DNA from: Methanotrichaceae archaeon
Lineage (GTDB): Archaea > Halobacteriota > Methanosarcinia > Methanotrichales > Methanotrichaceae
DNA: 64,000 nt
Reading direction: 5' to 3'
NCBI GenBank assembly: GCA_963754945.1
Contig: CAVWIG010000017.1
Span: 96,001 to 160,000, forward strand
The translations under genes and the position numbers were made by a program. Below are positions 5,849-9,435 of the stretch, piece by piece. Under the pieces are notes generated by a model. That model had not been told where the DNA came from. It worked only from the letters and a program-made list of their open reading frames with translations, and searched no databases. Numbering within the stretch: position 1 is the stretch's first letter; each line of letters starts with the position of its first letter.

Positions 5849-6115
5849 ATGAGCCTCCCTACTTTTGACGAGACCGCCGACAGCCTTAGGATGGTCTGCG
5901 ATGAAGCGCAAAAGGGGCTCTATCGGCTTGGACAGATACGGGAAAGAAATGATCTCCAATCCGAGAAGGAGCTTAGAATTTTCATATTAGCTACCAGCAA
6001 GGTGATTCTTGAAACGCTGCCATGTCTCCAGTTAGAAGAGGATGCAATCGCGGATATTGACAGCAAATATTCACATATCCTAAACGAATTCATCGAGAAA
6101 TCGGAACCGGTCTAA
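5849..6115 (+). CDS. Hypothetical protein
   Basis: 88-aa ORF with GGAGG RBS and globular-looking composition. Confidence 0.5.
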   Translation: MSLPTFDETADSLRMVCDEAQKGLYRLGQIRERNDLQSEKELRIFILATSKVILETLPCLQLEEDAIADIDSKYSHILNEFIEKSEPV

Positions 6116-6121
6116 TGGCCA

Positions 6122-6778
6122 GCTAGGCAAGCTGAAGATCTGGCGATAATCTTTTTTATCGTGTGGCTACTACTATCTCTCTGGCCGGGCTCTGGTCATA
6201 CCCCCTATATCCATTTAAGGTCGTCCCTGGCCATATCTCAAAATTTAGTTCTATTACATTTGCTAGGTCACCAATGAGAGGCCAGGCATGCACGGAATAG
6301 AGCGAAAGCGACCGAGATAGCCGCAGGCAATAGCCGCCAGGTAGCGAGGAGATGGAGACAGAAGACTATATCCCTCAAGCTCTCCTTTTGATCATGGCTG
6401 TGATATGTGTAGCCCGATCCATCCCTCCTAAATTTTGGGTCGTTGACCATACCCACTAATGCCTGGAAAGGTGGGATATGAGGAAAAAATGAGATCTAGT
6501 AGCAGAGACATGGAATTGAAGAAAAAGCTCAAAAAGAAGATTTTGGGAAAGAAGAAGGATGGCGTCCAAGACGAAAGTAACAACGCGAAGCGTAGCTCTT
6601 AGAAGAAGGCGAGCAGGGCCAACGATATCGAGTCCTGGCCAGCGGCAACCTAAGATGATCCTGAGACGCAGAAAGAACAATCTGCTAGGCAAGCTAAATA
6701 TCTAGCGATTACCCCCTATATCCTTTCAGACTATTCCTGGCTATCCCTTATCGATTAGTTCTATTACATCTGCTAGGT
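6122..6778 (+). repeat. Pair of degenerate direct repeats (6122-6268 and 6684-6778)
   Basis: Shared ordered blocks GCTAGGCAAGCT, ACCCCCTATATCC, CCTGG, TTAGTTCTATTACATYTGCTAGGT. Confidence 0.75.
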
Positions 6779-6830
6779 ACTTGGTGAAATGTCATAGAAA
6801 GCAATCATGAATCCTGATTCGCACCCAAAA

Positions 6831-8150
6831 CTATGAAAACGATTGCAGCGGATTGCAGTATTGATATGGGTAGTGAAGGCTGCTAATTAGTTCGGGACTT
6901 GGATCCCGTCATAGAAAGTAGCCAGACTTCTTGAGCACCCAAATGCGTCGCTGAACGCGAATGGCAATTCACCACCAGGGATTACTCATCTGCCCATATC
7001 GCAACTGCGAGGGCATAATGTCTGGAAAAAGAGAAATAGCTTGCGGAGTTGATGTACACAATAAGTTTATTGTGGCGACTATTCTTTCCAGCGACGGCTT
7101 GAAGCTTCAAGATCGATTTGAAACAAGCTTAGAAGAGCTTTTGAAGTTCAAGAATTGGCTAAAGGAGAATGGTTGCCATAAAGTGGCCGTGGAATCTACG
7201 GGCAATTACTGGCTTCCGATTTACAATGTCTTAGAGGGGTCTGTAAATTTTATTCTGGCAAATGCCTATCAGATTAAGCATATTCCAGGAAGAAAGACAG
7301 ACGCGCTGGATTCCGAGTGGATTGCGGAGATTTGTTTGAAGAATCTGATCTCTCCATCCCGAATCTTTCCCAGAGATCACCGCGAATTGAGATCTCTTAC
7401 AAGGACGAGAGAGAGCCTGATTAAAGTAAGAACCAAGATCAAGAATCGGGTTACTCACGAGCTAGAGGCTGCATGTATCAAGCTTTCCTCGGTGCTATCT
7501 GACGTTTTTGGCAAGTCAGGAAGACATATCGTCGATGGACTTCTTAACGGCATGGATTTGGAGAAGATATTGGAAAGCATACCTTCGAAAAGGGTAAGAG
7601 CGATTAAAGAGGAGATACGTGGAATCATCCAGGCTAACCTATCTCCTTCACAGATCTTTCTCCTTCGATCTCATCTGAATATGATTGATGCCATTACCAA
7701 ACAGATTGTAGAAATCGACGCTAAGATTTCGGATCAGATCTCTTCACGGAATGAAGACATGAGGATCGCTTTATCCATGCCGGGAATGGGAGTCGTTTCT
7801 GCATCTACTATCCTGGCAGAGGTCGGAGATTTCAGAGACTTCAGTTCCCCGAATAAGCTTGCTGCTTATTGCGGACTTGTGCCATCTGTTTATCAATCGG
7901 CAGGCAAGCAGATAAACGGCCATATCACAAAGCATGGTTCACCTCACATAAGAGGGATGATTATTGAGGTGGCACATGCCATTATTCGATCAAAGCGAAA
8001 CTCGAAACTCAAGAAGTTCTTCTTGAGGATCAAGGCAAGAAGAGGTACAAAAATTGGTGTCGTTGCTCTTGCAAGAAAAGTGCTCTGCATACTTTATCAT
8101 TTGCTGATCAGTCAAGAGCTCTATCAAGATGACCTGCTCAGCAAACCAAG
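6831..8150 (+). mobile_element. IS110-family element with its right end lost; left boundary tentative
   Basis: IS110 recombinase preceded by a structured non-coding end; the 3' end runs straight into IS5 copy 2. Confidence 0.75.
6853..7010 (+). ncRNA. Putative IS110 bridge-RNA-like non-coding RNA
   Basis: Closing stem 6853-6876/6986-7010 encloses two hairpins, each with a large internal loop; ends 7 nt before the recombinase ATG. Confidence 0.65.
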
Positions 8151-8166
8151 GAGGGTTTCGATTTAG
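7018..8166 (+). CDS. IS110-family DEDD recombinase/transposase; last residues read from IS5 DNA
   Basis: GVDVH, VESTG.YW, RKTD..D RuvC-like motifs; GLVPSVYQSAG serine loop; ALARK. Confidence 0.93.
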   Translation: MSGKREIACGVDVHNKFIVATILSSDGLKLQDRFETSLEELLKFKNWLKENGCHKVAVESTGNYWLPIYNVLEGSVNFILANAYQIKHIPGRKTDALDSEWIAEICLKNLISPSRIFPRDHRELRSLTRTRESLIKVRTKIKNRVTHELEAACIKLSSVLSDVFGKSGRHIVDGLLNGMDLEKILESIPSKRVRAIKEEIRGIIQANLSPSQIFLLRSHLNMIDAITKQIVEIDAKISDQISSRNEDMRIALSMPGMGVVSASTILAEVGDFRDFSSPNKLAAYCGLVPSVYQSAGKQINGHITKHGSPHIRGMIIEVAHAIIRSKRNSKLKKFFLRIKARRGTKIGVVALARKVLCILYHLLISQELYQDDLLSKPRRVSI

Positions 8167-9435
8167 TGTTGGTTAATGAAGCCTTAAATTCTTGCGTTAA
8201 TATTTTCAATCTTTATAGTGGTTTTTTAGCATATTTCACCCCTAAATTGGCTTATTAGATTTCAATTTACCTTGTTGTTTCTAATTTTTGCGCTTTTTTA
8301 GAGAGCTTCCGCTAGGCTGTTTGTTTATGCACTAAATATTTCAACTGTTCCAGGTTGTAAACGACCGAATTCATCATGAATTTTACTCCAGCTCTTGCGA
8401 CAGTTGTTACATAAACATGTGCTCCCTTATGCCCCCGCTTCATAACAGCGAAGCATCTTTCGATGTGCGATCGCGTTTTACTGATTCTCTTATTCCTCAG
8501 AAGATCTATGATTCCAAGCTTGTGACCTCTTGTAGCTTTTTTCATGGCTGCATCATATCCTCGAGTTTTTGCACCATCATATCCCTTATCGGCGTAACGT
8601 GGTAGCCCTTCAATTCCAAGATCTACCTGACTATCGTGTACAGAAGCAGTTGTAGTCTCAAAATATCTGATAAGGTGGTAATTGGTATCGATTGAGATAT
8701 GACCTTTATATCCGAAAAAGGATTTGACACCCTTTTTTGCCCAACTTCCCTCATTTATTGGCTCTTCTTCGAGTCTCTGTGGTTTGGCCTTGTCATCAAT
8801 AATATTATTTGAAATACCAATTAGCTCTTTATCAAACTCCTGATTCAGGCTCGTACTGGTGGCTTCGGAATCTTGACCTTCCTTTTTGTCCCCGCCTTGC
8901 TCGTCTTTCTTGTTCCTCTTCCGACCTGGGTCCGAAGTTATGAAGGTTGCATCCTGGATAGTGCCATTCTTTACAGTAAACCCCATCTCATCGAGCTGCC
9001 TTTGAAGCTCATTCCAAAGATCATCGTATACGTCGCACTTAATCAAACGTTCACGGAATAGCCAAACTGTGCTGAAATCAGGAATTACTTCAGTGGTGCC
9101 AAGGAAAATACGAAAAGAGATCCTATCCGCAACCTGTCGCTCCAGTTCTGGATCTGTTAGACCAAACCAATGCTGAATTACGAGAGCTTTCACCATAATC
9201 ACGATGTCAATGTTCGGACGACCTCCGCGGCTAGTTTTATTTTTGTATATCAATGGTTCCAAAAATCTGAAACGCTCCCAATTGATCAACGATCCGATCT
9301 CGGATAGATCATCTCCGAGGGCTTTTACTCGAGCATATTCTGCTCGAATGGCAAAATCAATGAGAGTCCTCATGCATTATATTATAGTATTAATAGTATA
9401 TAAGTATTTCGATTGATTAGTTTTTCGAAACTCTC
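8151..9435 (-). mobile_element. IS5-family element, copy 2
   Basis: Same TIRs and length as copy 1; flanks CAAG / ATAG do not match, so no target duplication. Confidence 0.95.
8312..9373 (-). CDS. IS5-family DDE transposase
   Basis: Translation identical to copies 3 and 4. Confidence 0.93.
   Translation of the reverse strand: MRTLIDFAIRAEYARVKALGDDLSEIGSLINWERFRFLEPLIYKNKTSRGGRPNIDIVIMVKALVIQHWFGLTDPELERQVADRISFRIFLGTTEVIPDFSTVWLFRERLIKCDVYDDLWNELQRQLDEMGFTVKNGTIQDATFITSDPGRKRNKKDEQGGDKKEGQDSEATSTSLNQEFDKELIGISNNIIDDKAKPQRLEEEPINEGSWAKKGVKSFFGYKGHISIDTNYHLIRYFETTTASVHDSQVDLGIEGLPRYADKGYDGAKTRGYDAAMKKATRGHKLGIIDLLRNKRISKTRSHIERCFAVMKRGHKGAHVYVTTVARAGVKFMMNSVVYNLEQLKYLVHKQTA

Follow-up and report, generated by a model that had tools for sequence, protein, structure and literature searches.

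A probable bridge RNA of an archaeal IS110-family element, with a donor guide that copies a subterminal box of the left end

The IS110-family element and its recombinase

The stretch of 64,000 nucleotides (nt) analyzed here as a whole, hereafter the window, comes from a Methanotrichaceae archaeon (assembly GCA_963754945.1, contig CAVWIG010000017.1, positions 96,001 to 160,000), and contains at positions 6800-8150, on the + strand, a copy of an IS110-family insertion sequence (IS) that lacks its 3' end and was delimited by identity to two intact copies. This element is the host of a guide RNA: its non-coding left end of 218 nt (6800-7017) includes at 6853-7010, on the + strand, what is very probably the bridge (seek) RNA of the element, a long closing stem around two internal-loop hairpins, and is followed by the recombinase open reading frame (ORF) at 7018-8166. 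We observed an RNA structure with covariation, four correspondences between guide strands and DNA, an AA core, the boundaries of the element and the catalytic residues of its recombinase. Hairpin 1 selects the target, and the 3' strand of the hairpin 2 loop recognizes the right end of the element; the fourth guide, the 5' strand of the hairpin 2 loop, is a same-sense copy of a subterminal box in the left end.

The recombinase ORF (+ strand) encodes 416 amino acids (aa) in the intact copies and matches PF01548 (DEDD_Tnp_IS110, 3.4e-26), PF02371 (Transposase_20, 3.6e-23) and the NCBIfam model NF033542 'IS110 family RNA-guided transposase' (269 bits versus a cut-off of 140). It comprises the RuvC-like DEDD domain and the Tnp domain with catalytic Ser that mark the IS110 family, and the catalytic D, E, D, D and S align, at low similarity (E 6e-11), to the IS621 chain 8wt6_A, whose catalytic residue numbers were taken from the accessible text of PMC11208158. 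A preliminary description of this DNA had called the protein an IS110 RNA-guided recombinase from a methanogen, starting at 7018 and not at 6961, which lies inside the RNA. The domain matches bear out the family, a methanogen host is borne out by the protein's relatives, found in metagenome-assembled genomes (MAGs) of Methanotrichaceae/Methanothrix and on one Syntrophomonas-binned contig, and the proposed start is plausible, the Pfam match beginning at residue 9; a GAGGG motif is located at 7009-7013, and homologous ORFs begin just past the closing stem. The Syntrophomonas-binned contig (L031, JAQVXF010000281.1, 2650 nt) carries a complete relative with 59% aa identity and the best-scoring match to the RNA, and reflects either mis-binning or transfer. 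Syntrophomonas is a bacterial partner of Methanothrix.

Three copies of the element in this genome are 100% identical across window positions 6793-8150, and the two intact ones are located elsewhere. Comparison of their flanks yields the layout left flank xCATAG-AA, AGCAATCATG... ...CGTTTTCATGGC-AA, right flank; to the left of AGCAATC the three copies have only xCATAGAA in common, which equals the 3' strand of hairpin 1 (GTCATAGAA). Excising AGCAATC...GGCAA from the intact copy L002 rejoins its flanks, by eye, as one open frame. Based on the flank comparison and this restored frame, position 6800 is the first of the element, with AA as its duplicated core; the left target half GTCATAG with the core AA (6798-6799), at 6791-6799 on the + strand, is host DNA outside the element. 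L002 and L003 have the core AA at either junction, the insertion being scarless; one subfamily apparently uses AG. The donor junction, CATGGC-AA-AGCAATC, was deduced from the copies and from L061 (G094:C139:1-2944), a direct tandem of two IS110 copies in which right end, AA and left end adjoin; this junction equals a circle junction fixed in the chromosome. The right end measures approximately 60 nt in the intact copies.

The window copy is without its last ~165 bp, the right end included, and these were found neither in the window nor elsewhere in the assembly (87.7% complete); a search of the genome with the 3' tail of the intact copies gave just two occurrences. The copy is cut off by an IS5-like element that spans at least 8151-9373 on the - strand (DUF772 and DDE_Tnp_1), with a transposase ORF of 353 aa at 8312-9373. 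The end of this IS5-like element is found at 37 further places of the 2.97-Mb assembly, where it is by far the commonest IS seen. The C-terminus of the window-copy recombinase is replaced after approximately residue 377, and its stop codon lies within IS5-like DNA. From the IS5-like junction at 8150/8151 and the missing ~165 bp it follows that in the window copy the RNA gene is intact, the right end is missing and the recombinase ends in a foreign C-terminus; the copy is probably immobile by itself. The truncation had been overlooked in the preliminary description; the 3' tail is absent from the window.

Structure of the guide RNA and its reading of target and right end

The 5' arm of the closing stem consists of TTGCAGT (6853-6859) and GATATGGGTAG (6863-6873) followed by TGA, and its 3' arm of TCA (6986-6988), CTGCCCATATC (6990-7000) and ACTGCGA (7004-7010). 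Between them are the target-binding hairpin 1 (6878-6923), with the outer stem GGCTGCT (6878-6884) / AGTAGCC (6917-6923), the inner stem CGGGA / TCCCG and the loop strands AATTAGTT (6885-6892) and TCATAGAA (6909-6916), and the donor-binding hairpin 2 (6928-6981), with the outer stem TTCTTG (6928-6933) / CAGGGA (6976-6981), the inner stem GCGT / ACGC and the loop strands AGCACCCAAAT (6934-6944) and GAATGGCAATTCACCAC (6959-6975), all on the + strand. Every stem that the preliminary description had listed was found in its place. When 6840-7020 was folded alone, the minimum free energy structure recovered the closing stem and hairpin 1 (z = -3.06; 2 of 200 shuffles were as stable), and the consensus fold of eight well-aligned 5' ends recovered the closing stem and both inner stems.

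A covariance model, R1, was built from 8 homologous 5' ends. It gave full-length matches in 57 of the 105 genomes of the order, all belonging to one family, and in a class-level sample it matched 44 of 151 genomes, among them, more weakly, 5 of the 18 genomes of a genus from a second family; Rfam returned no match at E <= 10 for window positions 6000-9000. Two divergent matches in the genome of the window (G000:C15:47595-47760 and G000:C7:68133-68297; 71.6 and 57.8 bits) presumably belong to other subfamilies of the element. Among 34 distinct sequences aligned to the model, compensatory changes occur in 16 of the 30 modelled pairs, a number that none of 500 shuffles reached; 91.5% of the cells pair, and slid controls drop to 1-7 pairs. 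Two U-G pairs (columns 51/67 and 110/126) are invariant in all 34 sequences, which indicates that the RNA is encoded on the + strand. The inner stem of hairpin 2 is invariant and hence uninformative for covariation, and its outer stem TTCTTG/CAGGGA was compared by eye only.

The four loop strands were taken from the model alignment of 58 matches and compared with each element's own DNA, namely the 130 nt upstream and the 140 nt past the ORF; cross-pairing between elements with different guides served as control. Five loci with an unclear right end were left out, and the right end of L083 was mis-assigned in the right-junction test. The 3' strand of the target loop (TCATAG-AA, 6909-6918, + strand) has the same sense as the left target half plus core, and matched the left flank plus core at 7 or more of 8 positions in 45 of 55 elements (control: 10.0% of 2290), invariably 59-72 nt upstream of the RNA. 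The two bases that follow its core, AG, are also the first two bases of the element, a handshake-like arrangement. The 5' strand (AATTAGTT, 6885-6892, + strand) is the complement of the core plus right target half (AA-CTAATT), and 15 of 28 elements matched core plus right flank in antisense at 6 or more of 8 positions (control: 5.6% of 666); the right flanks of relatives include CTGATA, CTATAG and CTAAAT. As is characteristic of the IS110 family, each half of the target is read by one of the two loop strands, on opposite DNA strands, and both loop strands read the core AA. The preliminary description had derived the site AATTAG-TT-CTATGA from loop 1; the site itself holds, spelled as the reverse complement of TCATAG-AA-CTAATT, the real target.

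The complete genome G034 (3.0 Mb, 22 matches) illustrates how the guides follow the flanks, each of its copy groups fitting its own guides. Nine identical copies are flanked on the left by xCACAAAG and, in most cases, on the right by (G)TC[A/T]CAGA; a second subfamily, with six copies, has ATTGAAA|AC in common, and a third, with three copies, AGTGAAA|ACGG.

The 3' strand of the donor loop (GAATGGC-AA, 6959-6967, + strand) has the same sense as the right-end tip CATGGC plus core AA of the intact copies, and 25 of 30 elements matched their own right-end tip plus core at 7 or more of 8 positions, compared with 0 of 106 in the control. The right-end tips GGCAA, GGTAA, GTGAA, AGGAA, GGGAA and GCGAA are each paired with their own guide.

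These results agree with the main claims of the preliminary description, a two-loop guide RNA within a long closing stem whose loops track the flanks and the element ends, and with two of the checks that it had proposed, covarying stems in a model built from homologous 5' ends and loops that follow the insertion flanks. A guide RNA is also expected here, bridge and seek RNAs being established and NCBI naming the protein family 'RNA-guided', and the IS110 family is marked by a conserved non-coding RNA that lies in a non-coding end of the element and folds around two internal loops. The RNA is presumably produced and bound by the recombinase, and recombination presumably proceeds through a circle or tandem junction, by analogy with IS621 and ISEc11. 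The placement of the structure would also suit a 5' untranslated region that controls translation of the recombinase without any guiding function: the end of the closing stem is 7 nt away from the start codon, and the stem's 3' arm adjoins the GAGGG motif, which resembles a ribosome-binding site. Loop strands that track independent insertion flanks as well as element ends are not predicted by such a structure, and we regard this explanation as highly improbable.

Several points weigh against our reading of the RNA, among them the weak tip hairpin and the constant donor mismatch described below. The alignments from which the stems were counted were fitted to model R1 itself; the sequences are related, many of them being copies of one element, and the counts overstate their independence. 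The right-target match is weak, and the right flank of L002 agrees with its guide at only 3 of 8 positions, this copy looking like a half-matched insertion. In support of the RNA, contigs from three of four RNA-library runs (three studies) span 6861-7025, and one RNA-library contig of 82 nt is identical to the window; such contigs attest to presence only, do not give strand or ends and may derive from DNA carry-over; 6700-6852 had no coverage in the four runs, which is uninformative about the 5' end of the RNA.

Several insertion sites deserve mention by themselves. L002 (G000:C17:252926-257283) interrupts a small ORF, which by eye we take to resemble a HicB-type antitoxin. In the subfamily represented by L089, L090 (G034:C1:2745429-2749850), L076 and L078, the target loop is programmed to ATTGAAA|C, and several copies, among them two adjacent insertions 2.26 kb apart, are located inside repeats ending in ...GGATTGAAAC, which by eye we take to be CRISPR-like repeats. 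Five of the nine copies of another subfamily in G034 (L073, L079, L082, L085 and L093) share one repeated context that by eye resembles the 5' part of an IS605-type tnpB/orfB gene, which suggests repeated targeting of another transposon, or co-mobilization. Upstream of the window copy, a local repeat (6199-6268 and 6710-6778; ~77% identity, ~510 bp apart) contains TTAGTTCTATTACAT in each unit, a near-cognate target site of this IS in inverted orientation with 2 mismatches. As target sites, 6243-6256 and 6753-6766 (- strand, 2 mismatches) were discarded, since 17 of 100 shuffles gave two or more such sites, which is chance level.

The fourth guide and the left end

The 5' strand of the donor loop (AGCACCCAAAT, 6934-6944, + strand) has the same sense as a subterminal box in the left end (GCACCCAAA, 6821-6829, + strand), which is identical to 6935-6943 at 9 of 9 positions and covaries with the guide across subfamilies. 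Same-sense agreement at 8 or more of 9 positions was found in 41 of 55 elements (control: 0.9% of 2228) and in 15 of 21 distinct guide-box pairs, 7 of them perfect; for the donor guides, the 21 and 12 distinct pairs are fairer counts than the raw ones. Variants of the box include GCACCCAAA, ACACCCGAA, GCACCGAAA, ATGCCCAAA, ATGCAAGAA and ATACACAGA. The box precedes the RNA by 29-39 nt and sits directly outside the left copy of a 9-bp subterminal inverted repeat; 19-27 nt lie between the box and the core.

None of the 55 elements had the donor 5' strand in antisense to the left end upstream of the RNA, tip included, and in none of 15 variants was an antisense copy of it found anywhere in the element; its only detectable partner is the bottom strand of the box. 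The canonical IS621 reading, applied to loop 2 and the preceding linker, was likewise rejected (0 of 55, with only a conserved but non-covarying UUCNUGA / CATGAA resemblance by eye), as was an intramolecular RNA partner (none at 1 mismatch or fewer, 15 of 15 variants). The preliminary description had read both strands of loop 2 as one junction, in the form of a contiguous site GCACCCAA-AT-TGCCATTC. No such site was found: the core is AA in both loops, and only the 3' strand reads the junction, the 5' strand being the copy of the subterminal box.

The left repeat ATGAAAACG (6833-6841) pairs at 9 of 9 positions with CGTTTTCAT, which in the intact copies lies 5 nt from the right end, and equivalents are present in all subfamilies. 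The spacer between core and box holds a hairpin, in the window GCAATCA / TGATT-GC at 6801-6822, with a weak DNA fold of -2.6 kcal/mol; a fold of -5 kcal/mol or lower was found in 15 of 31 distinct left ends, a count that includes a few mis-delimited rows, and the hairpin is far stronger in other subfamilies (-6.5 to -9.8 kcal/mol). A consensus tip hairpin of 5 bp was recovered from 22 aligned left ends, with covariation in two of its five pairs. In G034, an 85-bp miniature derivative (L100, G034:C1:1948610-1949110) has kept the left tip, the hairpin, the box and both repeats, and is flanked by cognate target halves. L099 (G034:C1:2912733-2913233) is a decayed version of this miniature; both are candidate non-autonomous elements. 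The same donor grammar was recognized by eye in 6 of 6 copies from a second archaeal family and in one relative with 39% aa identity on an Alicyclobacillus plasmid, on which R1 gave nothing significant (best 6 bits).

Based on these sequence patterns, we tentatively propose that both donor guides read one and the same DNA strand, complementary to the RNA, with the tip folding back or the spacer of ~21 nt looping out. The two guides would hold this strand on either side of the tip hairpin, and the fold-back would bring the box to where the second DNA strand runs in the IS621 complex, and with the same polarity; such would be the mechanistic role of the donor 5' strand, and the donor would be read, and perhaps transferred, as a single strand. 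The proposal is consistent with both donor strands having the sense of the top strand of the element, with the failure to find a canonical antisense match to the left tip or an antisense partner anywhere in the element, and with the constancy of the 19-27-nt spacer and the frequency of stable hairpins within it. The hairpin arms covary (ATGATCC/GGATCAT, ATGAGCC/GGCTCAT, GCAATCA/TGATTGC), the miniature element retains all of these parts, and predominantly top-strand integration has been reported for CazIS110-1 in the accessible part of 10.1101/2025.10.25.684509. Two observations speak against it: the tip hairpin is weak in the subfamily of the window, at the energy given above, and nearly absent in the L031 clade, and in one large clade the donor 5' strand has a constant internal A/C mismatch (ATGCCAGAA versus ATGCCCGAA). 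That the donor loop of the whole clade reads both guides from a single strand folded or looped at the tip hairpin, from a fold-back and effectively single-stranded donor, is a possibility that we hold with considerable reserve; a clade so defined would span the Methanotrichaceae, a second archaeal family and at least one Bacillota plasmid.

The constant mismatch, which speaks against a strict need for pairing, can be turned in favor of ends that are read by protein, as has been suggested for elements of the IS1111 type. The recombinase would then recognize the ends, for the most part, through the 9-bp repeats together with CATGA, and the donor 5' strand would only serve as a tether in cis or form an autoregulatory R-loop ~20-30 bp upstream of the RNA gene, feeding back on its transcription. 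The repeat is perfect over its 9 bp, CATGA is present at the tip of 22 of 22 aligned left ends, and box and repeat lie 10-39 nt upstream of the start of the RNA model, the distance at which an archaeal promoter would sit. According to the accessible text of PMC11187229, moreover, short seekRNAs with target guides only suffice for ISEc11, and end recognition may differ in the IS1111 family. What such a scheme hardly explains, without pairing, is the covariation of box and guide over at least 10 distinct variants, and the clear match of the donor 3' strand to the right-end tip and core places the loop in end recognition. We consider protein-read ends possible but doubtful.

The unequal extensions of the two ends could also be historical. 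The ancestral left boundary would then have been at the repeat, the tip of ~30 nt having been added by a half-matched event, and the identity of box and guide would be a relic. In the IS1111 elements described in the accessible part of PMC11187229 the left extension beyond the repeat measures 6-7 bp and the right one 3 bp, and here the right one measures 3 nt plus core and the left one ~33 nt; one-sided donor matches and element growth have been reported for IS110 (10.64898/2026.08.14.744561, as far as its accessible text goes). A relic would decay, however, and box and guide covary across two archaeal families and one bacterial relative; in addition, the guide is in the same sense as the box, and under this strand order a former right-donor guide should have the opposite polarity. 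This history appears improbable.

Two further ideas about the left tip were discarded. The ~30-nt tip is not target DNA in the form of a REP-like repeat, since the flanks of the copies diverge directly to the left of xCATAGAA and excision restores the host ORF. Nor does the box act as a second crossover that leaves solo footprints: the 33-nt tip pattern occurs at 11 places in G034, which correspond to nine full copies, one 85-bp miniature and one decayed derivative, with no clean footprint among them, and one subfamily has AC instead of the core as the dinucleotide before the repeat.

At the opposite end, intact copies (L002, L034 and L048) carry a TATA-like motif (TTTTATTTA or TTTTATATA) ~17 nt from the right end; it is not conserved in other subfamilies. 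Transcription from this motif could run across a circle junction and enter the left end.

Significance and comparison with known systems

The element belongs to a known class, and its fourth guide reads the element's own end in a way undescribed for the bacterial models. The family of archaeal bridge RNAs to which it belongs is well populated, being present in more than half of the Methanotrichaceae genomes searched, and displays natural reprogramming to very different targets, in one genome including CRISPR-repeat-like ends and tnpB-like 5' parts. Its fourth-guide rule, a same-sense copy of a subterminal left-end box, is robust, covarying and unexplained. If the donor were indeed a folded single strand, this would bear on end recognition in elements with subterminal inverted repeats and on whether IS110 elements move one strand or two; the mode of self-recognition would differ from the duplex donor of IS621 and would fit the disputed models of single-strand transfer. 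With an RNA of ~160 nt and a protein of 416 aa, the system is small and directly testable in vitro.

Archaeal IS110 recombinases as such are known, 662 of them from Vaysset et al. (10.1101/2024.06.21.599552), the accessible text of which contains no analysis of archaeal bridge RNAs. The 86 bridge-RNA models of the COMPASS preprint (10.64898/2026.10.21.760802), of which part was available, may include the RNA family of the window. A search of the literature for fold-back, cruciform or single-stranded donors in connection with IS110 and bridge RNA, figures and supplements aside, turned up no description of the arrangement found here.

Similar to IS621 and the IS110 group, as described in the accessible text of PMC11208160 and PMC11208158, the element encodes a DEDD and Ser recombinase, carries its RNA in a long left end upstream of the gene together with a short right end, and has its target loop ahead of its donor loop. 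The 2-nt core is covered by each target guide and found at both junctions, and in the window copy the two bases after the core of the target 3' strand match the element start in a handshake-like manner. In contrast to IS621, the strand order is reversed, the target 5' strand pairing with the top strand and the 3' strand with the bottom strand, both donor-loop strands are same-sense, and the subterminal inverted repeat measures 9 bp instead of 2-3 bp. By the IS621 rule (PMC11208160, accessible text) with the strand order reversed, the donor 5' strand should be the reverse complement of the core plus left tip, the loop reading both tips beside the core; the right tip is so read in 25 of 30 elements and the left one, in antisense, in 0 of 55. 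Instead, the donor 5' strand reads a box 19-27 nt further inward, on the same DNA strand as the 3' guide, and not the left tip.

Similar to IS1111 elements (ISEc11 and others; PMC11187229, accessible text, also for what follows on this family), the guide complementary to the top strand comes first, the order of top- and bottom-strand matches being reversed between the two families according to Siddiquee et al. (PMC11187229). IS1111 repeats measure 11-13 bp, with extensions of 6-7 bp and 3 bp; the perfect subterminal inverted repeat found here has 9 bp, within the range of 7-17 bp, and the extension beyond the right repeat is 3 nt (GGC). Unlike in IS1111, the left extension has 33 nt (6800-6832) as opposed to 6-7 bp, and the RNA is located upstream of the gene and not downstream; a few IS1111 relatives, ISMtsp17 among them, likewise have an upstream non-coding region (PMC11187229). 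In a tblastn search of plasmids, IS5075 and IS4321, which the accessible text of PMC11208160 assigns to the IS1111 type, aligned with residues 226-370 only (35% of the protein, 28% identity).

Two further systems bear on the left tip, each described here from the part of the source that was accessible. ISPpu10 (10.64898/2026.03.19.712850) resembles our element in having a DNA stem-loop beside the left half-site, possibly as a second layer of recognition in addition to RNA-DNA pairing ('sequence-structure dual match'); that stem-loop is in the target, whereas here the hairpin is in the left tip of the donor and a guide reads its far side. The top-strand transfer proposed for CazIS110-1 (10.1101/2025.10.25.684509) would suit a donor read as a single strand, but CazIS110-1 is a bacterial element with a canonical donor loop, and its abstract makes no link to a fold-back. 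Taken together, the Methanotrichaceae element is a bridge/seek RNA system that mixes the RNA placement and loop order of the IS110 group with the guide order and repeat of the IS1111 group, and its left extension of ~33 nt and same-sense fourth guide fit neither the IS110 nor the IS1111 description.

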